A stretch of DNA of 64,000 bases, from positions 352,001 through 416,000 of the forward strand of contig CAWCUS010000004.1 of the NCBI GenBank assembly GCA_963798845.1. The letters are read 5' to 3'. The notes under the pieces were generated by a model. That model was not told the DNA's origin. It saw only the letters and a program-made list of their open reading frames with translations, and searched no databases. Below, one piece after another: positions 1 through 25,246 of this stretch (its first letter is position 1; each line of letters begins with the position of its first letter). This DNA comes from an uncultured Gemmatimonadales bacterium (lineage in GTDB: Bacteria > Gemmatimonadota > Gemmatimonadetes > Longimicrobiales > RSA9). The position numbers and the translations under genes were made by a program.

Positions 1-2499
1 TTCGCCGCTCCCCTGCTCGCCGACCTCGCCGCCGAGGACATCGCGGGTGCGGATGAACGTCGGGCGACGCTGGCGGACGCGCTGCGCAGCGCGCTGGCGA
101 CCCGTTACGCCATCGAGGGCGAGCTGGGGCACGGTGGTATGGCCACGGTGTTCCTCGCGCGAGATCTCCGCCACGATCGGGCCGTGGCGGTGAAGGTCGT
201 CGAGCCGAACGTCGCGCCCGGGGGGGCCAGGCGGTTCCTGCAGGAGATCCGGACCGCCGCAGGGCTCACGCACCCGCACGTGCTCGGCGTCCACGACTCG
301 GGCGAGGCGGACGGCCTGCTCTACTTCGTGATGCCCTACGTGGAGGGAGAGACGCTGCGCGCTCGAATGGCGCGTGAGGGAGCGCTCCCGCTCGGGGAAG
401 CGGTGCGCCTGCTGCGTGAGCTTGCGGACGCGCTCACGTACGCGCACGCGCAGGGAATCGCGCATCACGACCTCAAGCCCGAGAACGTGCTCCTCTCGGG
501 CGGCCACGCCATCGTCGCCGACTTCGGCATCGCGAAAGCGCTGGCGGCCGCGACCGGAGACGAGTTCGACGCGGGCCTCCTCTCCGCTGCCGCGGTCCTG
601 GGCACGCCGGGCTACATGGCTCCCGAGCAGGCACTCGGCCAGGGCTCGGCCGACCACCGGGCGGACCTTTACTCTCTCGGCGTGCTCGCGTACGAGATGC
701 TCGCGGGCGCGCGCCCCTTCGGCTCGTCCCGTGCTCCCGTGCCGGCAGCGCTCCCATCGCTCCGCGCCCGCCGCCCCGACGTGCCGCCCGCCGTCGTCGC
801 GCTCGTCACGCGGCTCCTCGCCAGGGACCCCGCCGATCGCCCGCAGAGCGCTGAGGCCGTGCTGCACGCGCTGGACGGCATCCTCGTACCGCCGACCGGG
901 ACCACGACCGGGGCGCGCCGGCGGGTCGTCGCAGCCACCGCGACGCTGCTCGCCCTCGCGGGTGCCGGCGGATACGCTGTGTGGCGCGCGGATGCGACAT
1001 CGGCGGAGCGGCCCGAAACGGCTGTGACGATCAGCGGCGGGAGCCTCGTACCCGGGCGTTCTGCGCTCCAGGGGGTGGCGGTGGTGCCCTTCGCCAGCGA
1101 CGGCGGCTCGCCCGAGGACGACTATGCCATCGTCGGCATGGCCGATGAGCTGGCCCACGCGCTCGCGCGTCTCCCCGGGCTGCGAGTGGCCGGGCGAACG
1201 TCGAGCCACGCCTTCAGGGGGACGGCGGCCGCGCCCCAGGAGATCGGTCGGGCGCTGAACGTCGCCGCCCTTGTCGAGGGCACGGTGCACAGGACGGGCG
1301 ACCGTCTGCGCGTGGCCATGCAGCTGGTGAGCACCGCGGACGGGGCGGTGTTGTGGGACAGCGTCTTCGAGGGCCGCACGGGCGGGGTGCTCGGCCTGCA
1401 GGACGAGCTCGCCCGCGCTGTCGTCGCGGCCCTCGGGGCAGAGCCCGACGGGTTCGTCGGCGACGTTTCGGGCGTGGATCTCGGACGCGGCACCACGGAT
1501 CAGGAGGCGTACGATCTGTACCTGAGAGGCCGCTACCATTTCCTCCTGCGCGGCTCGGACAACATCACCCGGAGCATCGGGTACTACCGGCAGGCGATCG
1601 CGCGGGACCCGTCGTTCGCCCGCGCCCACGCGGGACTGGCGATGGCCTACAGCGTACTGCCGATCTTCCTCCCCGACCCGAGCGACTCGGTGAGTGCGCG
1701 AACAATGGCGAGTGCCGAGCGCGCGGTGGCGCTGGACTCCTCGCTCGCGGACGCGCAGATCGCCCTGGGCGTCGCGCTCGGCGGCCGCCTGCGGTTGCGC
1801 GAAGAACTGGAGCGCTACCGGGCGGCGGTGATCCTGGATCCGTCCTCCGTCACCGGGCACCACTGGCTCGGCCTCAGCCTGCTCAACATGGGTCATACCG
1901 ACGAGGCGATCGTCGAGCTGCGCCACGCGGCGGAGCTCGACCCGCTGGCCCCCACACCGGCGGCCGCGCTCTCGACCACCCTCCTGTGGGCCCGACGGTT
2001 TCCCGAGTCCGCCGCCGCGGCCCGCAGGACGCTCGCGCTCGACTCCACGTTCCGGTTCGCACTCTGGACGCTGGGCGTCGCACAGGCGTTCGGAGGGCAG
2101 CCGGACAGCGCCGTCGTGACCCTCGAGCGCGGTGCACGCCTGCAGCCGGGGGACCCCTGGATCTCCTCCGGTCTGCTCTTCGCCTATGCCGCGGCGGGCC
2201 GCTGGGCCGACGCGCAGCGGCTCCGAGCGCTTCTCAATGGGCCGGGCGGCGATCCATACGGCGGCGCTTTCGCCGCGCTCGGCGACATGGTGTTCGGCGA
2301 CCGGGAGCCGCTCGTGCGGCTGCTGAGCAGCGAGGTGGGGCAGCGCGACTTCATCCGCGCCGGCGGGTTGCTCGGCTGCAATCCGACCTTCGACCCGCTC
2401 TGGGAGGACGCGCGCTTCCGGGCCGCGATGCGCCGCCTCGGGGTGGCGGTCTGCCCGCTCGCGCGGCCGTGGCCCCTGCCAACGCGCCCGGGGGCGTAA
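1..2499 (+). CDS. Hanks-type Ser/Thr protein kinase with TM segment, TolB-N-like domain and TPR repeats (5'-partial)
   Basis: Frame is open from base 1 (..RYAIEGELGHGGMATV). Motifs VAVK, HHDLKPEN, DFG, GTPGYMAPE, followed by a hydrophobic segment, a VAVVPF..GMADEL TolB-like region and AYDLYLRG/TPR repeats. Confidence 0.92.
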   Translation, partial: FAAPLLADLAAEDIAGADERRATLADALRSALATRYAIEGELGHGGMATVFLARDLRHDRAVAVKVVEPNVAPGGARRFLQEIRTAAGLTHPHVLGVHDSGEADGLLYFVMPYVEGETLRARMAREGALPLGEAVRLLRELADALTYAHAQGIAHHDLKPENVLLSGGHAIVADFGIAKALAAATGDEFDAGLLSAAAVLGTPGYMAPEQALGQGSADHRADLYSLGVLAYEMLAGARPFGSSRAPVPAALPSLRARRPDVPPAVVALVTRLLARDPADRPQSAEAVLHALDGILVPPTGTTTGARRRVVAATATLLALAGAGGYAVWRADATSAERPETAVTISGGSLVPGRSALQGVAVVPFASDGGSPEDDYAIVGMADELAHALARLPGLRVAGRTSSHAFRGTAAAPQEIGRALNVAALVEGTVHRTGDRLRVAMQLVSTADGAVLWDSVFEGRTGGVLGLQDELARAVVAALGAEPDGFVGDVSGVDLGRGTTDQEAYDLYLRGRYHFLLRGSDNITRSIGYYRQAIARDPSFARAHAGLAMAYSVLPIFLPDPSDSVSARTMASAERAVALDSSLADAQIALGVALGGRLRLREELERYRAAVILDPSSVTGHHWLGLSLLNMGHTDEAIVELRHAAELDPLAPTPAAALSTTLLWARRFPESAAAARRTLALDSTFRFALWTLGVAQAFGGQPDSAVVTLERGARLQPGDPWISSGLLFAYAAAGRWADAQRLRALLNGPGGDPYGGAFAALGDMVFGDREPLVRLLSSEVGQRDFIRAGGLLGCNPTFDPLWEDARFRAAMRRLGVAVCPLARPWPLPTRPGA

Positions 2500-2587
2500 G
2501 CGCGAGGTCAGCCGACCTGGCGGGTGGAGCGGAGCGGCGCCCCCGACCTCGATCTCGTCGCCCGACTCGGAACCCCGAGGCCGGGCC

Positions 2588-5009
2588 TCAGGGCGTCCAG
2601 GACAGGCTCAGCGAGCCGTACCAGCCGGCGTGGTAGGGGGCGGGGATGATGTAGCCGTCGCCGGTGCCGCCGTCCTCCGGGAGGGCAAGCCCCTCGATGT
2701 TCGGGCCGATGAAGAGGAAGGCGTAGTGGGTGCTGTTCGTCAGGTTGTCGGCGCCGGCGAAGACGTCGAGCTTCCAGCGACCGCCGAGCGTGCGCTCGAG
2801 CCCCGCCTTCACGCTCACCAGGTCATAGCCGTCCACCCAGGTGGAGTTGTCGAAGGTGACCGGGACGCGGTCCACCCACCGGTACGTGACGTTGGCGTAC
2901 GCGCCGGCGCGGGTCGCGATGTCGAGCCCGGCGTTGACCGTGTTCTTCGGCACGCGCGGCACCGCGTTGCCCGAATAGTCGACGGTGGCGGGGTCGTCGT
3001 TGCGGTCGCTCGCGAAGTCGACGAACCTGGCGTCCAGGTACGAGTAGGTCACCCACGAGCGGATGCGCGACACCGGCGCCCGGGCGTCGCTCAACGCCAG
3101 CAGGCTGAGCGACAGCTCCGCGCCCCGGTTCCTCTGCTTCCCGGCGTTCGTCGTGTACGTCACGGAGCTGGATGTCGCAGTGACGAGCTTGTCCGTGTTC
3201 TCCAGGTCGAAGAGCGCGAGGCTCCCGGACAGGCGACGCCCGAAGAGGGAGCCCTGCACGCCCACCTCGTACTGAACGGCGCGCTCGGGCTGGAGCGACA
3301 GGTTCACGGACCCGTCGTTCGCCACCACGTTGCCGAGCAGCGGCGGCGTGTAGCCGGAGCCGACGCTGGCGTACGCGGAGACGGGCCCGGCCAGGACCTT
3401 CGCGATGGAGACGCGCGGCGTGAACACCGGGTCGAACGAGCGCGCCTGCACGCTGGCGCTGTCGTAGACCTGCCCATTCCGCAGCATGTTCCGGATCCCG
3501 AACCCGTTCCAGTGCACGCCGGCGCCGGCCGTCAGCCAGGCGCCGCCGGGCAGATCGAACGTCCACTCCGTGAACACCGACCGGCTGGTGGCGTGGTTCT
3601 GCTGGTCCGAGGGCCGCTGCGGCCGCGACGGGATCGGGATGATGAAGACGCCGTTCGTCGTGATGTTCGAGCGCTCCAGGGTGCCTCCCAGCGTCCCGTT
3701 CAAGCCGACGCTGCTGCCGAGCTTCCCCGTGTAGCCGAACACCGTGCGCGCACCGAAGCTGAACTCGGCGTTGTCCGTGACGCCGTGGGCGAAGCGCACG
3801 TCGGAGGTCTGCCCCGACCCGTAGACGGTCGTGCGATTGGAGAAGCGGTCGCCCAGGCGCAGCCGGTCCGTCACACCGGCCTGAAAGCCGTCCACGGCCA
3901 GGTGCGAGTCGTTGGCCAGGTACGCGTCGTTGCTCCTGGCCTGCCGCGCGTACAGGTCCGAGGCGTCGATCTCGCCCGCCAGCTCCTCGAACGACCGGTC
4001 ATACGCGAAGAACGTCGAGATGGTCTGCGAGTCCGCCACGCGGAAGTCGCCCGTGGCCGTCACGTAGTGCTTCTCCGACGCGCTGTGCGGCCGGAACGAA
4101 TCGTACGTCTGCCAGCCGTAGTTCATCGACAGCGCCGAGTGGTCCGTGGCCCGGTCGAAGGTCGTGTTCGTCCGGAGCAGGCCGTACCGCCCCCCGATCA
4201 CCTGCTGGGTCAGACCCCGATCGCCGGGCGCGGGCCGCCTGGTCTGGAACCGCACCGCCCCGCCAATGTAGCTGCCGTACTCCGTCGAATGCAGGGCCCT
4301 TCACGATGTCCACCCGCCCCAGCGTCGAGTAGTCAATGTCGTCCAGGATCGTCACCCCCGCCGCGTCCGTCACCGGGATGTCGTTGATGAACACCCTGTA
4401 GCCGAGCCCGTTCGAGTTCGGGCTGTTCCCGCTCGTGCTCGGGTAGTAGCCCCGGATGGTGATCCGCGCCCCTCCCCACGGCGTCCGCGACTGCATGAAC
4501 ACGCCCGGCTCCGTGTTGACCGACGTCTCCAGCCGGACCTCGTTCCCGCGCTCCAGGTCCTTCGCCGTCAGAACCCCCACCCCCGGCGTGGGTCGGCTCG
4601 TCACGACCTCGATCCCCGGCAACGGCACTGCCGCCGGGACGAGCGACACGTGCAGCACCTGCGACGCGTCCGCCACCGCCACCGTCCTGGCCTGGTAGCC
4701 CACGCTCGACACCGTCAGGCTCGCCACCGCGCGTCTCGCCCGCAGCGTGAACGACCCGTTCTCGTTCGTCACCGTCGCCGTCCGCGTTCCGGGCGCCTGC
4801 ACCGACGCGCCGGCGACCGGCGCGCCCGTCTGCTGGTCGGTCACGGTGCCGTGCAGCAGCGTCTGGGCTCGCAGCGCCGCGGGGAGGGCGAGCCCCAGCC
4901 CGCAGAGGAGGAGCAGCGCCAGGACGGGCGTGGAGCGTGAATGGGCGACGAGCCTTCGCGTGGCGCGCACGGGCGAGGTGCTCCGGTCGGAACTTCCCAG
5001 CCACGTCAT
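2588..5009 (-). pseudogene. TonB-dependent receptor, split by a +1 frameshift near 4288 (pseudogene or sequencing error)
   Basis: ORF 3999-5009 has a signal peptide, carboxypeptidase-regulatory-like domain and plug (ITIRG, RVDIVKGPA). Removing one base restores KGPA-STEYGSYIGGAVRF into ORF 2588-4255, a beta-barrel ending ADNL..SLSLSWTP. Confidence 0.85.
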
Positions 5010-12535: not shown

Positions 12536-12748
12536 ATGCCCGAGAGCGTCTACAAGGTCATCGAGCTGGTCGGCACGAGCACCGAGTCGTGGGAGAAGGC
12601 CGCGGTCGCCGCGGTGGAGCGGGCGGCGCAGAGCCTGGAAGACCTGCGGATCGCCGAGGTGGTCGAGCAGGACCTCCAGATCGAGGGCGGAAAGGTGCGG
12701 GCCTACCGCGCCAAGGTGAAGGTGTCGTTCCGGTACAAGGGGGACTGA
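12536..12748 (+). CDS. dodecin family protein (flavin-binding)
   Basis: GGAGG RBS; VYKVIELVGTS..SWE..A..YRAKVKVSF. Confidence 0.92.
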   Translation: MPESVYKVIELVGTSTESWEKAAVAAVERAAQSLEDLRIAEVVEQDLQIEGGKVRAYRAKVKVSFRYKGD

Positions 12749-13009
12749 CGCCCGTGTAGGGGGGCGTCGCCTCAGGTCGGAAGCTGCGCCGTCAGCAGGT
12801 CCCGAAGGGAGGGAGTCATGCCTGACCGCGTGCGCGCGCATGACACGCTCGCCATCGCCGGGCTGCACCACGGCTTCTTCGAGGCGCTCCAGGGGAATCG
12901 GGCCACCGGCGGTCTGTTGATCGCCTCCATCGGCCCCGAACCACGTTCGGTGGCAGTACGGCACCGACGGGGCGTTCACGCCGCGCGGCCCGAATCTCCC
13001 TGAGCCGGT

Positions 13010-13085
13010 AGCGCGCGGCGTGGTGCGGGACCTCGACGCCGGTGTGCCCGTGTTCAACGTCCGCACCATGGACGACGCGCTGCCC
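13010..13085 (+). pseudogene. short remnant resembling the C-terminal half of a MacB/ADOP ABC permease
   Basis: ARGVVRDLDAGVPVFNVRTMDDAL aligns by eye with VRGAVREMDRGLPIASLQTMDQNM of the intact permease at 44553-47012. Confidence 0.5.
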
Positions 13086-13115
13086 GCATCCAGGCGGGCA
13101 CGCGGGAGAACAACC

Positions 13116-13145
13116 TTGTTGCGCCTCCGGGCTGGCAGATACAAT
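13116..13145 (+). promoter_or_regulatory. candidate sigma70 promoter of the RiPP operon
   Basis: TTGTTG-N18-TACAAT, ending 46 nt before the PqqD ATG. Confidence 0.4.
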
Positions 13146-13191
13146 GAAGCCGTTCTCCTCGCATGGCCACCCGAACCGGCACCGGCAGACG

Positions 13192-13461
13192 ATGGTAGAC
13201 CTGGAGCGACGCCCTCGCCCTCACGATCGGGTCGTGACGCAGGAGGTCGAGGACACCGTGGTCCTGCTGGACCCGACCAGCGGGGAGTACTTCTCGCTCT
13301 CCGACACCGGCCGGCGCGTCTGGCAGCTCTGCGACGGCACGAGGGCCGCGAGCGAGATCTGCGAGGCCCTGGCGCGAGAATACGATGCGCCCCTGCCGGT
13401 GATCCAGGAGGATGTCCTGCAGCTTCTTTCCGAGCTGATGGACGCGCGACTCCTGGTATAG
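13192..13461 (+). CDS. PqqD family RiPP recognition element (lasso B1-like)
   Basis: 89 aa; VVLLDPTSGEYFSLSDTGRRVWQLCDG..ICEALAREYD..DVLQLLSELMDARLL. Confidence 0.92.
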   Translation: MVDLERRPRPHDRVVTQEVEDTVVLLDPTSGEYFSLSDTGRRVWQLCDGTRAASEICEALAREYDAPLPVIQEDVLQLLSELMDARLLV

Positions 13462-13468
13462 GGACCCG

Positions 13469-13945
13469 ATGCGGGCAGGCGTCGCACCGCGCCGTCTGAG
13501 GGCGGCCGCTCTGTCGGCCCGGGTCATGGCCGTCGCTACGGCCGTGCCCCTGCTCATGCGCCTCCCGCTTCCCCGGCTGGCTCGCCTGCTGGACCGGGCG
13601 ACCCGCCGTTCAGCGCCCTCCGAAGATCCGGAGCGCTCAGCCGGGCGCATCGCGGAGTGTTACGACCATCTTGCCGCCAACGGCTTCGTTCTCCGGCCCG
13701 GCTGCGTCACACGCGGCCTCACCCTCTTCTTCTTTCTGCGCCGCGCCGGCCTGGACGTCCAGCTCGTGTTCGGGATCGGTCGACCCAGGGGGGAGATGGT
13801 CGGGCACTGCTGGCTGGAACGAGCTGGAGCACCGTATCTCGAGCGCCGTGATCCGCGCCCACTTTACGCGGAGACCTACCGCCTTCCGTTGTCGGCGCCA
13901 CGACCGCCACAACCGATGCGGCCCCGGGCGCCGGGGGTGGAATGA
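13469..13945 (+). CDS. lasso peptide B2-like leader peptidase (transglutaminase-like Cys protease)
   Basis: GCVTRGLTL..LRRAG..LVFGIG..GHCWLE signature; directly follows PqqD. Confidence 0.88.
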   Translation: MRAGVAPRRLRAAALSARVMAVATAVPLLMRLPLPRLARLLDRATRRSAPSEDPERSAGRIAECYDHLAANGFVLRPGCVTRGLTLFFFLRRAGLDVQLVFGIGRPRGEMVGHCWLERAGAPYLERRDPRPLYAETYRLPLSAPRPPQPMRPRAPGVE

Positions 13946-14919
13946 CCCACTGCTACGGTCTGGCGGATGTCTCGTTCTCGGTGCAGGCCGATTCCGCCGA
14001 AGTCGTCGAGCTGCTGGACAGGCGGCTGAGGATCCTGCGGGCGAAGGGCGACGCCGGCCCCGCTCTGGTGCTGCGCTTGTCTCCGACCGTCCCGCCTCTG
14101 GCGGATCCGACGGGAGCTCTGGACGACCTGCGGACGGTGTACGACCCGCCGGCCGGGGAGGTGCTGTATTCGGAATCTTCCGATCTCCTCGTCCTGCGCC
14201 AGTCCGGCAGGGACCGGGGGTGGAGCGCGCCCCGGCGCCGCTGCGCGTGGATCGACCCGGGCGACGACGCCGGCAGCCGGTGGCGGGCGACCCATCCACT
14301 TGCGACGCTCTGCCTGTCCGAGCTCCTACGTTCGCAGGGCCTCTTCCCGGTCCACGCCGCCGCGCTGTCCCTCGACGGGAGAGGACTGCTGGTCGCAGGG
14401 AGAAGCGGCTCAGGGAAATCGACCCTCGCGCTCGCGCTCCTGAGGGCCGGGTTCGGTTTCCTCGGAGATGATACGTGCTTCGTCCGTGCCGAGCCCGGGG
14501 GCATGACGGTCTACGCGTTTCCGGACGAGATCGACGTGGCGGACGCCACCGTCCGCATGTTTCCGGAGCTCGAGCCCCTTCTGGAACGCCCCCGCCGCCC
14601 CGGTGCCGCCAAGCGCCCCCTTCTGCCGGAGGAGGTGTATCCGGTCGACTTCGTCCTTCACTGCCGCCCGGACATCCTGCTGTTCCCGGTGAGGGAGAGG
14701 GGGACCAGCCGACTGGAGCCGATGAGCGCGACAGCCGCCCTGCTGGAGCTGGCGCCCGGCATCCTGCTCACGCACCGGACCCGGGCGCAGGCCCACCTCG
14801 ACGCCCTCGGCACGCTCGTCGCCGGGAGCCGGTGCTTCCGGCTGTTCGCCGGGCAGGACTTCGAAGCGTTGCCGGAGCGGCTGGCCGGGCTCCTGGACCG
14901 GGAGCGAAAGGAACCATGA
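13942..14919 (+). CDS. HPr kinase-related P-loop kinase
   Basis: HAAAL..GLLVAGRSGSGKSTL..FLGDD; ATGA overlap with B2. Confidence 0.85.
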   Translation: MTHCYGLADVSFSVQADSAEVVELLDRRLRILRAKGDAGPALVLRLSPTVPPLADPTGALDDLRTVYDPPAGEVLYSESSDLLVLRQSGRDRGWSAPRRRCAWIDPGDDAGSRWRATHPLATLCLSELLRSQGLFPVHAAALSLDGRGLLVAGRSGSGKSTLALALLRAGFGFLGDDTCFVRAEPGGMTVYAFPDEIDVADATVRMFPELEPLLERPRRPGAAKRPLLPEEVYPVDFVLHCRPDILLFPVRERGTSRLEPMSATAALLELAPGILLTHRTRAQAHLDALGTLVAGSRCFRLFAGQDFEALPERLAGLLDRERKEP

Positions 14920-16190
14920 TGAGCGCGTCGCCCGTCAGCAGCTTCTCGCCGGTTGGCGCCCTCCTGGACGTCCTCGCCTTCGCGCCCTCGGGGCGCTCGC
15001 GGCCGCCACGGTCGCCCCTCGAATGGAGGCTGCTGATCCGCGCGGCGGAGCGGACCGAGCTCGAGCCCATGCTGTACCATGCGCTCACGGCGTCCGGAGC
15101 CAAGCAGGAGAGGTCGGTGCCTGAGGAAGCGCGCGCACACCTCCAGGCATTGTACGGGCGGAGCGCCCTCCGCAACGGGTTGATTCTGAACGCGTTGCAG
15201 GAGGCGCTACGGGCTTTGGATGACGCGGGTGTCGACGTCGTGGTCCTCAAGGGCGCATACCTCGCAGGCGCCGTATACGATTCCCCCGCTCTCCGTCCCA
15301 TGAACGACGTGGACATCATGGTCCGCAGATCGTCCGTCGATCGGGCCGTCCGGACCCTGCGGGACACCGGCTGGGCAGAGAGGGAAGAGGCAGGAGGGAC
15401 CCGCAAGCACCACGTGCCGGCATTCGACGGCCCGGGTGGTACTCTTCTCGAGCTTCACTGGACGCTGGAGCTGCCGTCGGCCCCGTTCGTGCTGGATATC
15501 GAGGGCGTCTGGGACCGATCCGTCGCAACGTCCCTGGCCGGTGCGCCTGCCCGATGTCTGGCGGTAGAAGATCTCCTGCTGCACCTGAGCCTGCACGCCG
15601 GCTATCACCACCGCTGGGGCGAGACGGTGCTCACGGAGCTCCCGCTCCGCTGGGTGTTCGACGTCGCGCTGGTCCTGGACCGGCTCGGCCCCACCATCGA
15701 CTGGCCTCGGCTCAGCCACCGGGCTCGCGCCTGGCGCGCATCCAGCTTCCTGTACTGCGCGATCTCCCTCGCCGCGGCGTTGTTCTCGGTATCCACGGCG
15801 GAGGGCGCGCTCGATGGGATCGACCACACGCCCGAGGACGAGCGGATCGTCGCCGTTCTCGAACGTCTGCTCGGCACGGACACCCGCGCCACGGCGCCTC
15901 ACGCGTTACGAGCCTGGCGGCGCAGCGACAGTGCGGGCGAAGGGGCGCGCGCCATCCTCCGCTCGATCTTCCCGCGCCCCGGCCGGATCGCCCAGATGTA
16001 CGGTCTGCCACCGGGCAGCCGCCGGGTCTGGCTCCTCTATCCCGCACGCGTGGTCGACCTGATCGTGCGACGCGGCGCGAAAGCGTTCGGCCTGATCGTC
16101 CGGACCCCGCGCGGGCGGGAGCTCCTGGAGCGCGAATCCGCCAAGCGCATGGTGGCGCAGTGGGTCGACTCCGCCACCCCCCGTGACTGA
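14916..16190 (+). CDS. nucleotidyltransferase family protein (NTP_transf_5-like)
   Basis: VVLKGAYLA..Y..PALRPMNDVDIMV, LELHW, EDLLLHLSLH, DW motifs; ATGA overlap with kinase. Confidence 0.88.
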   Translation: MMSASPVSSFSPVGALLDVLAFAPSGRSRPPRSPLEWRLLIRAAERTELEPMLYHALTASGAKQERSVPEEARAHLQALYGRSALRNGLILNALQEALRALDDAGVDVVVLKGAYLAGAVYDSPALRPMNDVDIMVRRSSVDRAVRTLRDTGWAEREEAGGTRKHHVPAFDGPGGTLLELHWTLELPSAPFVLDIEGVWDRSVATSLAGAPARCLAVEDLLLHLSLHAGYHHRWGETVLTELPLRWVFDVALVLDRLGPTIDWPRLSHRARAWRASSFLYCAISLAAALFSVSTAEGALDGIDHTPEDERIVAVLERLLGTDTRATAPHALRAWRRSDSAGEGARAILRSIFPRPGRIAQMYGLPPGSRRVWLLYPARVVDLIVRRGAKAFGLIVRTPRGRELLERESAKRMVAQWVDSATPRD

Positions 16191-16192
16191 CC

Positions 16193-16295
16193 TGTCGGCG
16201 CCACGACATTGTTGCTTGCCTTCGACATGGAACGGGATCCGGAAGCACCTCGACCTCGTGCGCGGTGCGAGCCGCCCTCGGGAACAGGACTTGCG
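16193..16295 (+). promoter_or_regulatory. candidate sigma54 promoter with upstream palindromic enhancer for the precursor gene
   Basis: TGTCG-N6-CGACA palindrome at 16193-16208; GGGAACAGGACTTGCG (GG-N10-GC) at 16280-16295. Confidence 0.4.
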
Positions 16296-16345
16296 GCCAC
16301 CCCCTCGTCCACCTGCCGTCCGACCATCCACACGGGAGGCTGTCC

Positions 16346-16426
16346 ATGAGGACCCGCAAGCGGTACGTCAAGCCGCAGCTGCGTCGCCTGGGACTGCTCC
16401 GGCGCCTGACGCAGTTCACCTTCTAG
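16346..16426 (+). CDS. RiPP precursor peptide with lasso-type leader (MRTRKRYVKPQLRRLGLLRRLTQFTF)
   Basis: GGGAGG RBS 6 nt before ATG; YxxPxLxxxGxxxxxT motif; directly after the PqqD/B2 operon; too short for the ORF track. Confidence 0.88.
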   Translation: MRTRKRYVKPQLRRLGLLRRLTQFTF

Positions 16427-16447
16427 CGGTCCCTGCGATCCGCTCCA

Positions 16448-16487
16448 TTCAGCGCCCCCGGCAAATGGACCGGTCGGGGGCGCTGAA
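16448..16487. terminator. 13-bp inverted repeat, probable terminator/stabilising hairpin between convergent genes
   Basis: TTCAGCGCCCCCG (16448-16460) pairs with CGGGGGCGCTGAA (16475-16487). Confidence 0.65.
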
Positions 16488-16545
16488 CCATTCAGGCGAC
16501 GACGTTGCCGTCCTCCGCCCATTCCGGCGGCCGGGTGGTGGCCGC

Positions 16546-16938
16546 TCAGGTCCCGGACACGCGGGCGAAGCCGGCGTCGGGGTGCCGGTGAACGGAAACG
16601 GTGGCGTTGCCGAGGGCGCGGGCCTTGGCGTTGAGCCGCTCGACGACGTCATCGTCGACGTCGCCGAAGACGGAGATGGAGAGGATGTCGAGGAGGTCGC
16701 CGAATCTGCGGAACTCATCGTCGCCGACGGTCATGTGGTGGGCCAGGGCGGCGGAGTCCGGGTGCTCGCTGATGACCGTCATCTCGCGCCGCTGGTCGTC
16801 GACGAAGAAGCGGTAGGAGAGAACGTGGGGGTTGTTGGCACGGATGAAGGCGGACAGGCGCTCGATGGCCGGCCGGAGTTCGGGCAGCCGTCCCTGACGG
16901 ATGCGCGAGCGGTCGATGTAGAGTATGGGTGTGTTCAT
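16546..16938 (-). CDS. hypothetical protein, ABM/dimeric alpha-beta barrel-like
   Basis: RIRQGRLPEL..P.VLSYRFF..VISEHPDSAALAHH pattern; GAGG RBS. Confidence 0.65.
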   Translation of the reverse strand: MNTPILYIDRSRIRQGRLPELRPAIERLSAFIRANNPHVLSYRFFVDDQRREMTVISEHPDSAALAHHMTVGDDEFRRFGDLLDILSISVFGDVDDDVVERLNAKARALGNATVSVHRHPDAGFARVSGT

Positions 16939-18583: not shown

Positions 18584-18613
18584 TTGACGCCGCGCGGACG
18601 ACGTCGTTAACCT
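18584..18613 (+). promoter_or_regulatory. candidate sigma70 promoter
   Basis: TTGACG-N18-TAACCT upstream of the glycosyltransferase. Confidence 0.45.
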
Positions 18614-18670
18614 TGCCGCGGCCGCAGGACCCTCCCCGCTGCTCAGAGCCAAGTCCCGGACGGTAAGGCC

Positions 18671-20035
18671 TTGATCTCCATCATCGTGCGAACGAAGAAC
18701 GAGGAGCGCTGGATCGGCTCGTGCCTCGAGGCGATCGGTCGCCAGACCCGCACCGATTTCGAGGTCGTGCTGGTCGACAACGAAAGCAGCGACAGGACGG
18801 TCGCGAAAGCGCTCCAATATGGCGTGAGATTGGTGTCGATCCCGGAATTCAAGCCAGGCGCTGCGATCAATCGGGGAATCGAGGCGGCCGACGGCGACGT
18901 CATTGTGTGTCTATCGGGACACTGCATCCCGGTCGACGAGCACTGGCTGGCGAACCTGGTCGCCGGTCTCGACGACGAAACCGTTGGCGGTGTCTACGGA
19001 AGGCAGGAGCCCCTGGCCTTCACACCGGATCTCGACAAGCGCGACCTCCTGATCACGTTCGGGCTCGACCCGCGGGTCCAGGTAAAAGACAGCTTCTTCC
19101 ACAACGCGAACAGCGCCTTCCGCAAGTCGACCTGGGAAAGGTTCCCCTTCGACGAGGAAGTGTCCAACATCGAAGACCGCATCTGGGCGAGTCAGGTCCA
19201 GGGCGCGGGGATGAAGATCCTCTACGAGCCCGACGCGAGCGTCTATCATCACCACGGGATCCACCACAGCGGTGATCGTGTGCGCTGCGGCAATATCATC
19301 CGGATCCTGGACACGACGGGTCAGGAAGGGGTTCGCACCGCCGACAACAAGATCGATGCGCGGACTCTCAACACGGTGCTGGTGATCGCCGTGCGCGAGG
19401 AGGGGCTGAGACGACTCGGAGACAGGCCGCTCTACGAATACGCCATCGAACACGCCAGGTGCTCCGAGCTCGTGCGCACGATCGTGGTCTCGACCGACAG
19501 CCCGAGCGTGGCAGCCGAAGCCTCCGCGGCCGGGGCGGATCTGGTGCTGACGCGAGAGGAGGAGGAATCGCGCTTCGACGTCATTCTCGAGCTGATGATG
19601 CAGTCCTCGCTGCACAAGCTGGAGGACCGGGGCATCATTCCCGACATTCTCGTGATGCTCGAGACGACGTTCCCGTTTCGGGACCCCACGCTCATCGACA
19701 AGCTTATCTACCAGTATGTCGAGGGCGGCTTCGACACGGTGATTCCGGCGCGGATCGAGTTCAACTCCTGCTGGATGGAGGAGGAGGGCGCCTACCGCCG
19801 CGTCGACGAAGGGTACGTCGCGAGGCAATTCAAGAAACCCTTCTATACGGGTCTCAAGGGCCTCTGTTGCGTGTGCTCTCCGGCCACCGTCCGGCAGGGC
19901 CAGCTGTTTGGCGAGAACGTCGGGCTCTACAAGCTGACCGACGCGGTCCATTCGATCGAGGTCCGGTCCGATGACGACGTCGCCCTGGCCGAGACGGTCA
20001 TGGCGAGCCCCCTGTTCGCGACTCGCGTCGGGTAG
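18671..20035 (+). CDS. GT2 glycosyltransferase fused to an acylneuraminate cytidylyltransferase-like domain
   Basis: ISIIVRTKNEE..VDNESSDRT GT2 fold; C-terminal LGDRPL..AIEHA..IVVSTDS..ETTFPFR..IEVRSDDD resembles NeuA/KdsB; TTG start. Confidence 0.85.
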   Translation: MISIIVRTKNEERWIGSCLEAIGRQTRTDFEVVLVDNESSDRTVAKALQYGVRLVSIPEFKPGAAINRGIEAADGDVIVCLSGHCIPVDEHWLANLVAGLDDETVGGVYGRQEPLAFTPDLDKRDLLITFGLDPRVQVKDSFFHNANSAFRKSTWERFPFDEEVSNIEDRIWASQVQGAGMKILYEPDASVYHHHGIHHSGDRVRCGNIIRILDTTGQEGVRTADNKIDARTLNTVLVIAVREEGLRRLGDRPLYEYAIEHARCSELVRTIVVSTDSPSVAAEASAAGADLVLTREEEESRFDVILELMMQSSLHKLEDRGIIPDILVMLETTFPFRDPTLIDKLIYQYVEGGFDTVIPARIEFNSCWMEEEGAYRRVDEGYVARQFKKPFYTGLKGLCCVCSPATVRQGQLFGENVGLYKLTDAVHSIEVRSDDDVALAETVMASPLFATRVG

Positions 20036-20049
20036 GGAGCGGCCTCGGG

Positions 20050-21027
20050 ATGCATCGTCTCGGCATCGTCGGTCTCGGTCACGTGGCGGCGCACCAGGTC
20101 GCCGCGCTCGCCCACGGCGAGGCACTCGAGCTGGTGGCGGTATGTGACCCTGACGGAGAGCGCCTGGCCGTGCTCGGTGAGGATCGGAAGACGTACACCG
20201 ACATCGCCGACATGTTGTCGGAGTCGGACCTCGACGTCGTCATGGTGGCCACACCCAATCATCTGCACGTGCAGCACGGCATCCAGGTGCTGGAGGCGGG
20301 CAAGTGGCTCGTAATGGAAAAGCCCCTGGCCGAGACGCAGGCCGGTTTCGACGCCGTCGCACGGGCCCGGGAGCGGTGTGGAGGACACTGCACCATCGCG
20401 TTGCACGCCGCGTTCGGGCAGGAGGTCGAGTGGTTCTGCCGATCCGGGACGAGGCAGGAGCTCGGGGCCGCTGAAATCGACTCGTTCACGGGCCAGTTCT
20501 ACGATCCCTACTTCGAGAACGGACGTTTGCAGGCCCGGGCCCTCTCCCTGGGTGGGGCGTGGATGGACAGTGGGATCAACGCGCTCAGCGTCATCGCGCG
20601 CATGCTCCCGCTCGAGCGCCTGGTGGTGCGCGACAGCCGCATGACGCGCGTCGCCAACGTGGACTGCACCGAAGTGCAGGGCACCGTGGACTTCGAGGTC
20701 CGCAACGGAGACTTCGTGGGGTCGGGGCGCATCGACACCAACTGGACGCTCGGGCGCGACATGAAGGTCACGACGGTTCGCCCGCGCGGGTCCGACAGGA
20801 GGATCATCCTCGACCACTCCGCCCAGCAGGTTCGAGTCCGGTCGCCTGAAGGCGAGGAGGTCGTCTTCGCGTGCGGCAACGGACTGCCTCGACTCACCAA
20901 CCACTACATCGGCGTCTTCGGCAATGTGGCACGGCAGCTCGAAGTGGGCCAGGACAATTTCGAACTCGCCAGGGCGTTGCACGGCCTGCTGTACGAGGCC
21001 GAGGGTCGCCAGGCGCCCACGTTCTGA
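20050..21027 (+). CDS. Gfo/Idh/MocA family oxidoreductase
   Basis: GIVGLG, VATPNHLH, EKP, GGAWMDSGIN. Confidence 0.88.
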   Translation: MHRLGIVGLGHVAAHQVAALAHGEALELVAVCDPDGERLAVLGEDRKTYTDIADMLSESDLDVVMVATPNHLHVQHGIQVLEAGKWLVMEKPLAETQAGFDAVARARERCGGHCTIALHAAFGQEVEWFCRSGTRQELGAAEIDSFTGQFYDPYFENGRLQARALSLGGAWMDSGINALSVIARMLPLERLVVRDSRMTRVANVDCTEVQGTVDFEVRNGDFVGSGRIDTNWTLGRDMKVTTVRPRGSDRRIILDHSAQQVRVRSPEGEEVVFACGNGLPRLTNHYIGVFGNVARQLEVGQDNFELARALHGLLYEAEGRQAPTF

Positions 21028-21036
21028 AGCTCGATC

Positions 21037-22221
21037 CTAGCCCTTCCCGAGCAGCCGCCCGAGAACGCGCTTCACGAACCGGGAAGCGACCACGAGACCG
21101 GGCAGGGGATCGTACCAGCGGAACCACTGGCCGCTCCTTGGCCGGAAGAGCAGCGCAACCTCCGTCGCCAGGATGCGCAGGAGCGGTACGCCGTCTTTGC
21201 GCATGGACCGGATGTCCGTGTACGCATTGTGGAAGTACAGTCCTTCGCGCTGGCTGCTTCCCGAACGCGAAGCCGGCTCGCCGGCCGCGATCCGGTAGGT
21301 GTTCCACACTGTGGGAAGACCGCACGCTTCGTCGAAACCCACCTCGCCGCCGATCCGGGGGTTCAGCTCGATGTACTTGAACATCCCGTCGCGCTCGTCC
21401 CATCGGTACTCGATGCCGACATGGCCCACGTAGTTCAGGGCTTTCCCGAGGTCGGCCGCGAGCGTGAGGATGTCCTGGTTGACGCGGCTGATCGAGAAGG
21501 TGCTGGTCCCGAAGTGAGGCGGCATGGTCCGCAGCTTCTGGCGCACCAGGCAGTCGAGCAGCTCCGAGTTTTCGTCGAACGTGCCGGAGCACACCCACGA
21601 GTTGTCGTCGCGCCCGGGGATGATCTCCTGGGCGAGCAGGACTGGGAGGGCGTGGCCCCAGTCGTCGTAGAATCGCTGCAGCTCGTCCGCATCCTTCGCC
21701 GTCTGGACCTTCTCGGGGAAAACGGACCGCACGGCGAATGAATGGGGCTTGAAGATGATGGGGAACCGGAGCTGTCGAGAGAGCTCCTCCGGATGGGACG
21801 GCAGCTCGCGAATCGTCTTCGGGATGGCGAATCCGAGTGATTCGATGAGCGCGGTCTCCTTTCGCTTGTCGTTGAGCGCGTCCACCATCTCTCGCGGAGG
21901 CAACCTGAAGCGGAACCGCTTCCCGAGCTCCTCCTCGTTGGTGGACACCAGGGACACGAGCAGGTCGGAGGTGAAGAGCAGCACCGTCCCCTCGCCAGGA
22001 AGGCTCCGCAGGAGATTCAGGATCTCCCGCTCCTTCACGGCGACCTCATCCGCGTCACCGGGCACGACGTACTTCCTGACCGGATAACGCGAGTGCAGCA
22101 CGGGGTCGGTCTCGTCGAAGGCGATGGCGGTGACGCGGACCCCGCGGCGCGCGAGGGACCGGACCGTGCCGAGCCCACCGGGGCCGTGCGACACGACGAG
22201 CGCTGGCGGTAACGTGGCCAA
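21037..22221 (-). CDS. ATP-grasp carboxylate-amine ligase (D-aspartate ligase-like)
   Basis: VRSLARRG, FPIIFKP, QEIIPG, EYRWDERDG.FKYIELNPR. Confidence 0.85.
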   Translation of the reverse strand: MATLPPALVVSHGPGGLGTVRSLARRGVRVTAIAFDETDPVLHSRYPVRKYVVPGDADEVAVKEREILNLLRSLPGEGTVLLFTSDLLVSLVSTNEEELGKRFRFRLPPREMVDALNDKRKETALIESLGFAIPKTIRELPSHPEELSRQLRFPIIFKPHSFAVRSVFPEKVQTAKDADELQRFYDDWGHALPVLLAQEIIPGRDDNSWVCSGTFDENSELLDCLVRQKLRTMPPHFGTSTFSISRVNQDILTLAADLGKALNYVGHVGIEYRWDERDGMFKYIELNPRIGGEVGFDEACGLPTVWNTYRIAAGEPASRSGSSQREGLYFHNAYTDIRSMRKDGVPLLRILATEVALLFRPRSGQWFRWYDPLPGLVVASRFVKRVLGRLLGKG

Positions 22222-22359
22222 GTGGATTCGTGTTGGACGGGTGACGAGAACAGGAACTCCAAACCCCGCCTCGGGCGGTCGGAAGGATGGGTGAGAGTGG
22301 TTCAGCGGGTCAAGTAGTAGTGAACGGGGGGGCGAGCACCACCCGTCTGGCCGGACGGA

Positions 22360-23388
22360 TCAGCGGCTGAGGCGCTCGAGTCTCTCGTATGGCTCCGAAG
22401 CCCACTTCGAGACCAGGTCTCGTTGCCGTGCGGAGAGCTCGGGCACCGGACGCTCCTTGAACGCGGCCTTTGGCCGCTTGGCATCCTTCGTCGTCAGAGC
22501 GAAGACCCGCTCGAAACCTTCGTCACCAAGATCGAGCCCGAAGAACTCGAGCACTCTTCGCAAGTATTCGGGCCGGGTCAGGTTCCGATAGTTGAGGAGC
22601 TTCAAGCCACGTGCGCTGTGGCTCGCGGCGATCTCGTAGTGAGTTCCGATCACGCGTGCCGCATACTCGTCCACCGACATCCGATCGATCGAGGCGGCGT
22701 CAATTCTCACGAACCCCGCCGCCAGCTGCGGAGCCCGCTTCATCTCCAGCCATGCACAACCGCCTCCGTGGATCACCTTTTGAAAGACCTCACACGGGTC
22801 ACGATAGAGATACAGCATGGGCACGTCGGGAAAGGAAGCCTCGAAGACGTCGAGCTTGCCCGCGTGTGGGCTCGGGAACTTCACGAAGAAATGCTTCTCG
22901 TTCCCGGTATAGGCACGCCCCAGAGCCTTGACACCACCGTGGAGGCGCCGGCGCATCACTTCGACCGACTCGCCGGACAGGGCAGCCGTGAACACCGGCG
23001 GTTCCCCGAGAGCCAGGCTGCCCGGTACCGCGCCGAGGACGTGCCGCAGAAGAGTCGATCCACATCGAGATATGTGGAACACGAACCCCGACGGCGGAAT
23101 CCCGTGCGTAACCTGATCGACCGCCTCCAGGGCTTCCATTCGGGTGATTCGAACGTTCGCATTCGAGCTGGCGATACGGCGCCCGAAGTCTCCCCTGGCG
23201 AAAGGCTTCGTGAACTGCTCCCCTTGCATGTCGACCCAGACGAGGCGCCCCCACAGCAGGCGGTACGGAGCCCACATGCGACCCCCATCGTCCAGCGGCG
23301 GCGGTCTGTTCGACGAAAATGTGAGCTCGGCCCAGCCGTGGCGCGCGACAGCCCGTCGCAGGTTCCAGCTCAGCTTCCAGTTCGGCAT
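22360..23388 (-). CDS. sulfotransferase-like P-loop protein
   Basis: FVFHISRCGSTLL (5'-PSB-like loop), LYRDP; GGAGGAAGGAG RBS before ATG at 23388. Confidence 0.72.
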   Translation of the reverse strand: MPNWKLSWNLRRAVARHGWAELTFSSNRPPPLDDGGRMWAPYRLLWGRLVWVDMQGEQFTKPFARGDFGRRIASSNANVRITRMEALEAVDQVTHGIPPSGFVFHISRCGSTLLRHVLGAVPGSLALGEPPVFTAALSGESVEVMRRRLHGGVKALGRAYTGNEKHFFVKFPSPHAGKLDVFEASFPDVPMLYLYRDPCEVFQKVIHGGGCAWLEMKRAPQLAAGFVRIDAASIDRMSVDEYAARVIGTHYEIAASHSARGLKLLNYRNLTRPEYLRRVLEFFGLDLGDEGFERVFALTTKDAKRPKAAFKERPVPELSARQRDLVSKWASEPYERLERLSR

Positions 23389-23749
23389 GGCCGTTCTCCT
23401 TCCTCCTGCGGCTGACCGACCGACATTATTGGATCTTGCCTCTCCGCTGGTGTCAGTGAGACCCTCTATACTACGGCCGCCGTGGCGATTCGCTGAAGTG
23501 TGGTCGGATACTCGCGGCCCGCCCGGTGCCAACTGCTGCCGCCGGCGGACGGGATCAGAGTTCGCCGCGGTCCCGCGAGAACTGTGCCCGGCCACCTCAG
23601 GATCGTCCGCCTTTCCTCTTGTCCATCTGAAGGAGGAGGCCGACTCCTGTCCAGATCCCGGCGCGAACTGGATCGGCCCGTTGGGGCGCCTGCGGCGTGA
23701 CCGCAGGTCGACTCCCGCCTGAGACGGTAGAGGTGGCGTGTTCGCGCGG

Positions 23750-25246
23750 TCAGGCGGGCACGGGTGGGCCTGCCGCCTCGTCGGCCGCTGGGGTTCCGAC
23801 CCTGGCCGTACGTGGCGTGGCGACGGTCACGATGGTCGTCACGAGGACGTTCACTGCCAGGGCGACGAACCCGACGTTCAGATCCTTCACCAGCTGGGGC
23901 GCGGTGGGCAGGAGGCTGGCAACGGAGGCGCCGGTGAGCGACAGGTAGGCGACGACCACCTCGCCTGCCACGATCCCGGCGAACGCCCCCGCCGTGCTCG
24001 CCCGCGGGCGCCGGCCGAGGCTGAGCACGAGGGCGGGGAAGAGCTGGGTGACGAAGTTGTAGCCCATGAGCAGGAGGGCGACGATGGCTTCGCCACCGCG
24101 GAGGGCCAGAAGCGCGCTGACGAGCGCCACGAGCGGCACGAGCCCGCGGGCGAGGAGCACGACGGTGCGCTCGGACGTGGCGGGGGCGATGCCGCGGTAG
24201 ACGTTCTGAGCCAGAATGGTAGCGGCCGTGATGAGGATCATGGAGCCGGGCACGAGCGCAGTGAGCAGCCCCGCGCCGCCGATCACGCCCACCACCCATG
24301 GGTCGAAGGTGATGCTGGAGATGCGCAGAAGCGAGAGGTCGGCGTCGGCGCCCTCGAGCCCCGGGACCACCAGGATGGCGGCGAAGCCCACGAAGAAGAC
24401 GAACAGGATCACCAGCTGGTAGAGCGGGAGGAGCACCGCGTTCCTCCGGAACACGTTCTCGTCCCGCGCGGTGTAGACGCCGGCGAAGAACTGCGGCCAC
24501 ATGTAGAAGCCGAGCGACGTCAGGATGACGGTGGAGATGAACCAGGCGGGGCTCATCCCGCTGGGCGCGAGGGTGAGGAAATCGGGGCTGGCGTGTTCCA
24601 CGGCCCTGAACATCTCCGCGTAGCCGCCATAGTAATGCCACGGAAGGTACACGCCGAGGGCCACCGCGACCGCGAGGATCAGGACGTCCTTCAGCGCTGC
24701 GGTCCACGCGGAGCCCCGCACGCCGGAGACCACGACGTAGGCCACGAGCGCGGCGCTCCCGGTCCACACGGCAGTGGTGGGGGAGATGCGCCCGTAGGAG
24801 GCCTCGGACACGATGATCCCGAGCCCTTTCAGCTGAAGCACCAGGTAGGGCACCAGCGCGGCCACGCTCACCACCGCCACCAGCACGCCGAGAGAGCGGC
24901 TGTCGTACTTGGCGACGAAGAAGTCGGCCTGCGACACCAGGCGCCGCTCGCGTGCGTACCGCCACACCGCCGGCAGCAGGAAGTAGGAGAACGTGTAGGC
25001 CACGGCGCCGTAACACAGGATGTAGAAGGCGGGCGCTCCTTTCCCGTACGCCCAGCCGCTGCCGCCGAGGAAGGTGAAGGTCGTGTAGATCTCGCCGGCC
25101 AGGAGCAGGAAGACGAAGAGGGTGCCGAAGCCGCGGCCGCCGACGCTCCACTCCTCCAGGTTCATCTCGTGACCCCGGCGCGCGAGGAGCCCGAGGGCCA
25201 CCGCCACGACGAAGACGAGCGCGAGCACCAGCAGCGCACCGGTCAC
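23750..25246 (-). CDS. sodium:solute symporter (YhjB-like)
   Basis: WSVGGRGFG, GEIYTTFTFLG, many TM helices. Confidence 0.92.
   Translation of the reverse strand: MTGALLVLALVFVVAVALGLLARRGHEMNLEEWSVGGRGFGTLFVFLLLAGEIYTTFTFLGGSGWAYGKGAPAFYILCYGAVAYTFSYFLLPAVWRYARERRLVSQADFFVAKYDSRSLGVLVAVVSVAALVPYLVLQLKGLGIIVSEASYGRISPTTAVWTGSAALVAYVVVSGVRGSAWTAALKDVLILAVAVALGVYLPWHYYGGYAEMFRAVEHASPDFLTLAPSGMSPAWFISTVILTSLGFYMWPQFFAGVYTARDENVFRRNAVLLPLYQLVILFVFFVGFAAILVVPGLEGADADLSLLRISSITFDPWVVGVIGGAGLLTALVPGSMILITAATILAQNVYRGIAPATSERTVVLLARGLVPLVALVSALLALRGGEAIVALLLMGYNFVTQLFPALVLSLGRRPRASTAGAFAGIVAGEVVVAYLSLTGASVASLLPTAPQLVKDLNVGFVALAVNVLVTTIVTVATPRTARVGTPAADEAAGPPVPA

Follow-up and report, generated by a model that had tools for sequence, protein, structure and literature searches.

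A candidate precursor gene that joins a lasso-type leader to a core of three residues in a cyclase-less cassette of an uncultured Gemmatimonadales bacterium

Introduction

The closest published system to the locus described here is that of the linear polyphosphorylated peptides (LPPs), which are encoded in Bacillota by clusters of the form lppA-K-B-S-D-N (Popov et al., Nat Commun 2026; PMC13381572). According to the accessible text of that report, the kinase LppK puts up to four phosphates on Ser3 of a 45-residue core, the peptidase cuts the unphosphorylated precursor poorly, and LPPs are held to be restricted to Bacillota (PMC13381572).

A second group of described systems comprises the phosphorylated lasso peptides, in which HPr-kinase homologues attach phosphate to the Ser at the C-terminus of the precursor (PMC8498205, PMC6993621) and, in the case of pseudomycoidin, PsmN adds a hexose to the phosphate (PMC6993621). 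In the accessible parts of these two papers, the kinase and the PsmN-type transferase are always described in clusters that also contain a cyclase (PMC8498205, PMC6993621). A literature search whose coverage stopped short of most subscription journals and of the supplements to PMC13381572 turned up neither a family that lacks a cyclase and depends on B2 nor any mention of an F[ST]F core. Canonical split-B lasso systems (TbiB1/TbiB2, FusB1) follow the same leader logic as the family presented here.

Ribosomal products of very small size are known in their own right. Biarylitides have a three-residue core and microcin C is a heptapeptide-nucleotide, while PQQ and mycofactocin are small molecules cut from a precursor. 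What these minimal-core RiPPs share with the present locus is the concept only, that is, a ribosomal precursor that gives rise to a product of few residues; their enzymes (P450, MccB, radical SAM) are unrelated, and to our knowledge none of them uses lasso B1/B2 proteins with a kinase.

Here we analyse a short gene in a 64-kb stretch of DNA (the window; 64,000 nucleotides) and the relatives of this gene in other genomes and in metagenomes.

Results

A 26-codon gene at the end of a five-gene operon

The original prediction had described a 26-codon open reading frame (ORF) with a GGGAGG ribosome-binding site, an exact YxxPxLxxxGxxxxxT leader and a Phe-Thr-Phe core, and on rereading the letters all of these elements are present. 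The gene (A) lies on the forward strand at 16346–16426, with its ATG at 16346 and a TAG stop at 16424–16426, and the Shine-Dalgarno sequence GGGAGG is at 16335–16340 on the same strand, six bases 5′ of the ATG. Its 26 codons translate as MRTRKRYVKPQLRRLGLLRRLTQFTF, which at the predicted cleavage site divides into a 23-codon leader (16346–16414), MRTRKRYVKPQLRRLGLLRRLTQ, and the core FTF, which with its stop codon occupies 16415–16426. The residues typical of lasso leaders are Y7, P10 and L12, which make up the YxxPxL motif, and T22, which is the Thr at position −2. The peptide had also been said to contain no acidic residue, even after read-through, and the sequence confirms both points: the 26-mer has neither Asp nor Glu, and read-through of the TAG yields RSLRSAPFSAPGKWTGRGR before a TGA, with no acidic residue gained.

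Downstream of the gene, and again in keeping with what had been predicted, a GC-rich hairpin with a perfect 15-bp stem and a 10-nt loop is found at 16448–16487 on the forward strand. Its computed stability is −38.9 kcal/mol (z = −3.72), and none of 200 shuffled sequences folds as well. The hairpin lacks a U-tract and is not a textbook intrinsic terminator; a possible GC-rich hairpin, recognized by eye as an unfolded inverted repeat, also lies 3′ of at least four related genes (G009, L077, L085 and L089). Scans of 12700–16600 returned no sigma-70 promoter site and two weak terminator-like sites, at chance level.

When the window is translated in all six frames, the strict pattern Y..P.L...G.....T has a single match; first-order Markov simulation gave a mean of 0.043 matches per window, with at least one match in 13 of 300 runs. 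Likewise, the peptide model matches only this locus in the whole genome. The contigs of two DNA sequencing runs, placed with a 90% threshold, agree with the window at 99% or better in every case and extend over parts of the operon; none of them bridges 16351–16494, and hence they offer no independent check of the stop codon.

Gene A is the last gene of a forward-strand operon with the order B1, B2, K, N, A, in which the first four genes are tightly packed, with no room for a further ORF between them, and A begins 155 bases after N. B1 (13144–13461, forward; the start is uncertain, with an ATG at 13144 or 13192) is a PqqD-family RiPP recognition element (RRE; PF05402, 76.1 bits, E 2.8e-21) that scores 50.2 bits against the lasso PqqD model NF033530, under the cut-off of 70. 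Among solved structures it is closest to TbiB1, a lasso RRE (E 1.4e-10), followed by PbaB1 (2.7e-4) and LppB (0.011). B2 (13469–13945, forward; 158 aa) is a transglutaminase-like cysteine leader peptidase and the sole PF13471 match in the genome (E 7e-14); it passes the cut-off of 33 for lasso_biosyn_B2 (NF033537) with 61.6 bits, and across 10 sequences Cys79 and His113 never vary and Asp128 hardly does.

The start of K (13942–14919, forward; 325 aa) overlaps the stop of B2. K is an HPr-kinase-like peptide kinase (PF07475, E 7.6e-7) that, at 48.6 bits against TIGR04355 and 43.9 bits against TIGR04352, falls far below the cut-offs of 200 and so outside the NCBIfam HprK-related A and B families. 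Nine family kinases share without exception the Walker A residues G153-S155-G156-G158-K159-S160-T161 and the pair D176-D177; in the accessible account of PsmK, the matching DD pair is the metal site that was mutated and is essential (PMC6993621). The ATG of N (14916–16190, forward; 424 aa) overlaps the stop of K as ATGA. N is a PF14907 nucleotidyltransferase (200.2 bits, E 5.5e-59) with K112, G113, D131 and D133 invariant in 10 sequences, and D131/D133 resembles the DxD reported as mutated in the accessible text on PsmN (PMC6993621). To judge from these alignments, the catalytic residues of B2, K and N are intact.

No solved structure matches N by sequence. An AlphaFold model (pLDDT 81.9) has a predicted fold that resembles the nucleotidyltransferases ANT(2'')-Ia, LnuA and MenT (E ~3e-4, TM to target 0.63–0.68), with a weak match to FKRP, a CDP-ribitol phosphotransferase (E ~4e-3). 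The modelled likeness to FKRP raises the idea that N might move a phospho-alcohol from a CDP donor rather than a nucleotide.

The cassette and its neighbours contain no detectable cyclase

Pfam scans covered ORFs picked by codon bias, namely a set of 18 in the window, a second set of 22, and 52 of the 155 in a third set. The Asn-synthase-type cyclase family PF00733 had no match among the 18 window ORFs (10.8–23.6 kb) and none among the scanned ORFs of the family loci, and the two PF00733 matches in the genome sit on other contigs (C6, C2). A tblastn search with the lasso cyclase of L091, a canonical lasso locus, against 191,524 bases (the window and 21 loci) matched L091 only and gave nothing in the window or in the 20 family loci. 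No cyclase homologue was found beside any of the 24 peptides of the family described below. Furthermore, no ABC transporter was found among the window ORFs scanned between 7.8 and 28 kb, which leaves the operon without an exporter. In one relative, G582, an ABC-2 pair adjoins K.

The genes 5′ of the operon are unrelated to it (a 2-oxoacid:ferredoxin oxidoreductase, a LysE-type translocator, an aldo/keto reductase and a dodecin), and the 400 bases between dodecin and B1 contain no precursor remnant in any frame. On the 3′ side, a gene for an FAD/NAD(P)-binding protein and a block of lower G+C are both found on the opposite strand. The window is the only locus in which A comes after N rather than before B1.

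Relatives of the precursor

Weak paralogue matches to K are common in related genomes, with matches in 57 of 101 (a tally that takes in the four unpublished genomes G016, G017, G047 and G062) and up to five per genome. Only G009, from the same family and a different genus, has a true K orthologue among them (43% identity, E 2.4e-61); 400 other genomes of the phylum yielded no orthologue at E ≤ 1e-20, and the cassette was not found in the same-genus genome G001 with the queries used. The G009 peptide, preceded by AAGGAGG, reads MTVRRAYRKPHLRRLGLLRRLTR followed by FTF and TAG, with a hairpin and then B1 after it, and B2-K-N lie on a separate short contig. Of the 21 codons compared between the window and G009 genes, 7 are identical, 11 differ synonymously and 3 change the amino acid. 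The ORF is thus conserved, a point on which the original prediction had staked itself, and by this codon comparison it is under purifying selection.

Among the relatives G001–G100 (for example at L042–L061), an HPr-kinase-like gene beside PqqD and PF14907 genes is a very frequent arrangement. A lasso-leader pattern search near 20 paralogous kinase loci (12.6–20 kb; L047 and L052 come from the unpublished genomes G017 and G047) gave four unconvincing matches inside GC-rich frames, and in three of these 20 loci the 950 bases after N contain nothing similar to the precursor. Next to another paralogous kinase, at L030:1–159, there is a lasso-like precursor that ends in YSTPRLRIYGDFTSLTQ and, after the predicted cut, TNSDQKNKNDATQGQNNLKT.

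More distant relatives came from several searches. A scan of species genomes with a two-kinase alignment gave a single locus, L062 of the Acidimicrobiales, where a peptide composed of MENKRTYEKPELQKLGLLRDLTK and MSHWGWNQGPRGA precedes B1-B2-K; the same scan missed G582 and G748, and its sensitivity is therefore low. A protein search with a 45-residue in-frame stretch containing the L062 peptide added four peptides (P0002–P0005) with the cores FSFNGQRSY, MSFNRNF, FSFNGRGSF and FSFNRNF. A peptide profile run over 400 genomes of the class of L062 added two more, G582 and G748, which both end in LTR followed by the core FSF and a TGA stop; the peptide gene is followed by B1-B2-K in G582, with N divergent upstream, and by B1-B2-K-N in G748. 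Finally, a metagenome scan with the peptide alignment returned 16 loci, 15 of which carry a family peptide, including three with three-residue cores (L077, FTF-TAA; L085, FSF-TAG; L089, FTF-TAG). The corresponding metagenome scan with an alignment of N gave no match.

The sixteenth metagenome locus, L091, serves as a canonical lasso control. The cluster, at 190–4598, carries B1, B2, a PF00733 cyclase and, behind it, a precursor of 52 residues made up of MDHADTTPPRKRYRKPELREYGDLRRVTE and an acidic 23-residue core, TVQAGMGAVDGAMFGKADFKTAG; the cyclase and the acidic core are the two features that set it apart from the window family. An unknown ORF and a PRMT-like methyltransferase also occur in L091 after the precursor.

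A conserved hydroxyl residue and a recurrent stop

In total, the family comprises the window peptide and 23 further peptides with the same leader, so that the predicted combination of a lasso-type leader and a three-residue core belongs to a conserved precursor-like gene. Its 24 members have 18 distinct cores, in which position 2 is Ser or Thr in every case, position 3 is aromatic or His in 17, and Asp and Glu never occur; the C-termini vary freely among relatives. Seven peptides stop directly after F[ST]F (the window, G009, G582, G748, L077, L085 and L089), and the remaining cores have 7–14 residues. Long cores in orthologues had been named beforehand as evidence against the prediction; some relatives do have them, yet acidic residues and a cyclase are absent there as well. 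The seven short genes come from lineages of 52–72% G+C and use three different stop codons (TAG four times, TGA twice, TAA once), and all six short-core genes other than that of the window have a purine-rich site before the start codon. Seven aligned family peptides show no variation at Y, K, P, L, LGLLR, L and T.

B1 directly follows A in 17 loci (G009, L062, G582, G748 and 13 metagenome loci), and at L077 and L089 the contig is too short to tell. PF14907 is present wherever the contig reaches, specifically in the window, G009, G582, G748, L081, L082, L083, L086 and L088. TonB-dependent receptor matches number 17 in the window genome (G000) and 34 in G009, and there are none in G470, G582 and G748; because these counts differ, the family, as far as gene content tells, spans outer-membrane-bearing bacteria and Acidimicrobiia.

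A midpoint-rooted tree was built from 13 family kinases and 4 paralogues, two of which are on long branches that make the rooting unsure. The window and G009 kinases pair (93/98 support), those of G582 and G748 branch separately and deeply, and the eight long-core kinases form one clade (98/98), which places the short-core kinases on three separate deep branches. Because of this separation, the tripeptide state does not look, on the kinase sequences, like one recent accident. Since the tripeptide forms occupy deep branches, the three-residue core may even be ancestral and the cores of 7–14 residues a later elaboration, with the proviso that the root of the tree is insecure.

Directly upstream of the precursor, five of the other six loci with short cores have a gene for a large protein (L064:660–2054 and L074:10089–11621, reverse; L085:55–2055, L089:116–1426 and L077:249–1895, forward). 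No Pfam family matches the C-terminal ~180 residues of this protein, which are homologous between loci (35–58% identity, E 1e-15 to 1e-72). The G748 copy of the domain is ~4 kb away (L075:13874–14644, forward); the query used returned no copy from the window's genome or from G470, a genome with a long core.

Just 5′ of A in seven long-core loci, all of which have at least ~700 bases on that side, there is a gene for an AlkB-like 2OG-Fe(II) oxygenase (PF13532), often after an AhpC/TSA gene (L062:8082–8972, L080:17–739, L081:1037–1816, L082:86–799, L083:2575–3492, L088:1777–2637 and L090:3545–4819). This oxygenase may be shared synteny of close kin rather than a member of the cluster.

Discussion

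It is informative to compare the window cassette with the LPP clusters in terms of both parts and logic. Like the LPP clusters, as far as these are described in the accessible text, the cassette combines an RRE, an HprK-like kinase and an NTP transferase without a cyclase, its leader contains the YxxPx[L/V] RRE motif, and its candidate acceptor is near the N-terminus of the core (Ser3 in LPP, the conserved Ser/Thr2 in the sequences of the window family). The differences are equally clear. LPP clusters use a SipW-type signal peptidase (SpI, LppS) where the window has the B2 cysteine protease, and an MsbA-like exporter (LppD) where the window has none; the leader consensus is YxxPxVLxHQxIxFETxxS in LPP and YxKPxLxxLGLLRxLT in the window family. 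LPP precursors have 35–200 aa, with 45 aa in the core of the studied case, according to the accessible text, whereas the window core has 3 aa, and the hosts of LPPs are Bacillota, unlike the TonB-dependent-receptor-bearing window genome. Finally, the RRE of the window is nearer in sequence to TbiB1 than to LppB, and since this is so, an origin of the cassette separate from that of LPP, derived from lasso systems, is suggested. The logic of LPP is therefore shared, but the protease, the missing exporter, the leader consensus and the phylum place the cassette outside LPP, and together with the affinity of the RRE they lead us to read it as a separate, lasso-derived and B2-dependent variant of the linear-phosphopeptide theme with an extreme core.

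The comparison with paeninodin, ThcoK-type and pseudomycoidin clusters runs along different lines. As these are described in the accessible literature, they too bring together within one operon split B1/B2 proteins, a homologue of HPr kinase and a nucleotidyltransferase of the PsmN type, and the DD metal site of the kinase and the DxD site of the transferase are conserved in the window enzymes. In contrast, these clusters have a cyclase and a core Asp/Glu at 7–9, neither of which the window has, and their acceptor is a C-terminal Ser, whereas the window peptide ends in Phe and has its conserved hydroxyl at core position 2. More generally, the YxxPxL leader with Thr at −2, the B1 RRE and the B2 cysteine protease of lasso systems are all found in the window; the macrolactam synthetase and a threadable core with Asp/Glu at 7–9 are not.

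We consider it almost certain that the ORF is a real gene, and highly probable that it encodes the substrate of the B1-B2-K-N cassette. The reading that we prefer, and that we regard as probable with appreciable room for doubt, is that the ORF is precursor A of a five-gene, cyclase-less, lasso-derived cassette that yields a small, linear, phosphate-decorated peptide and not a lasso. By analogy with LPP, paeninodin and pseudomycoidin, B1 would bind the YxxPxL leader, K would add one or possibly several phosphates to the hydroxyl of Thr25, the second residue of the core, N would add a further group (a hexose or other moiety from an activated donor) onto the Thr25 phosphate, and B1/B2 would cut after Gln23 and so free the modified tripeptide. 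The original prediction had offered two modification sites, the Thr hydroxyl and the C-terminal carboxylate. The family sequences favour the first, with Ser/Thr2 in all 24 cores, and disfavour the second, with C-termini that vary. On these analogies we lean slightly towards phosphorylation of Thr2, and we would give a decorated tripeptide as the final product an even chance.

Several observations weigh on the other side. Specifically, LppK left an S3T variant unphosphorylated, according to the accessible text (PMC13381572), and the window core has Thr at the acceptor position, which, set against this preference of LppK for Ser, counts against Thr2 phosphorylation. The same source records no visible change on deletion of lppN in a heterologous host (PMC13381572), which counts against the part given to N. 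Further points against the cassette reading are that the operon has no exporter, that A sits in an odd place, that the upstream protein is missing and that the cassette was not found in G001 with the queries used; the placement of A after N and the lack of the upstream protein could mean that the window holds a rearranged, partly decayed copy.

The best-surviving alternative, which we regard as unlikely, is that the precursor is real and its chemistry is different, with the carboxylate at the C-terminus or the side chains of Phe as targets (for example by nucleotidylation of the C-terminus or a cross-link) and the kinase serving another role. This would suit the aminoglycoside-nucleotidyltransferase-like fold predicted for N, the proximity of the C-terminus in the short forms, one residue from the conserved Ser/Thr, and the frequency of Phe1 and Phe3 or, at position 3, of another aromatic residue or His. 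It fits poorly with the longer cores, where the variable C-termini are 4–11 residues further on and Ser/Thr2 is fixed, with a conserved five-gene set that includes no oxidative enzyme (the AlkB-like oxygenase is found only beside long-core close kin), and with the three studied systems, in all of which, as reported in the accessible texts, kinases of this type phosphorylate Ser hydroxyls.

It is also worth asking whether the peptide is a leader-only decoy or regulator that occupies the RRE of B1 and tunes the cassette, with the true substrate encoded elsewhere and no product chemistry of its own. The peptide is almost entirely leader, and many related PqqD-kinase-N cassettes have no lasso-motif peptide nearby (none convincing in the 20 loci), as such a role would allow. 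A pure RRE ligand would need neither the conserved F[ST]F nor a Ser/Thr2 that is kept in all 24 peptides, and with one peptide-model match in the genome no other candidate substrate was seen; we hold this explanation to be improbable.

A decayed lasso cluster, in which the cyclase was lost, the precursor was shortened by a nonsense mutation and the ORF is a relic, might be expected to retain a leader, B1 and B2 of lasso type, as the window does, and could also account for the unusual place of A and for the cassette not being found in G001 with the queries used. That the gene is not simply a nonsense-truncated lasso gene had been claimed from the window alone, and the family upholds the claim: the F[ST]F-stop recurs at the same position in seven independent loci with three different stop codons and a broad range of G+C, no core has Asp or Glu, and no cyclase is found, so that this is not a truncated lasso gene. 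Moreover, the longer-core relatives lack the same two features, synonymous changes dominate between the window and G009, the enzymes keep their catalytic residues, and read-through adds no acidic residue. Decay is thus strongly disfavoured already and, in our estimate, very improbable. A chance ORF in GC-rich DNA, for which the very short length speaks, is of negligible probability and is refuted at the sequence level by conservation in the 23 further peptides, besides the low expected frequency of the motif and the position of the ORF on the operon strand, shortly after N and behind a Shine-Dalgarno site.

If the preferred reading of a cyclase-less, phosphate-decorating cassette is true, the lasso pair for leader recognition and leader cutting works without a cyclase on a three-residue core, and the idea of the linear phosphopeptide, described in 2026 and for Bacillota only, extends, by way of another protease, to Acidimicrobiia and to Gram-negative bacteria of soil and sediment. 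The acceptor indicated by the family is a conserved one, the Ser/Thr at core position 2. Going further, and with a confidence that falls a little short of even, we suggest that the F[ST]F peptides are the smallest leader-dependent substrates of lasso-type B1/B2 and represent a branch of linear phosphopeptides that depends on B2 and crosses phyla; its product would be a phosphorylated and further decorated tripeptide, a diffusible small molecule rather than a peptide antibiotic of the usual size. The predicted product is small enough for synthesis, which makes the kinase and the PF14907 transferase directly testable.

Genes of 24–26 codons escape gene callers: exact look-ups in ~15 billion called proteins returned none of six peptides (that of the window and those of five other short-core relatives). 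Because gene callers miss genes of this length, cassettes of this kind that seem to be “precursor-less” may have a precursor that is too short.

The lower-GC block on the 3′ side of the operon lies at 18611–23826 of the window, 2–7 kb from the cassette, and has a G+C fraction of 0.61–0.66 against 0.70. It encodes a GT2–cytidylyltransferase fusion, a GFO/IDH/MocA oxidoreductase, an ATP-grasp enzyme and a protein with a weak sulfotransferase-like match. According to the accessible text, LPP clusters are often found beside polysaccharide loci, a setting that the glycosyltransferase block of the window resembles, and paeninodin clusters are likewise reported, in the accessible literature, beside polysaccharide loci.
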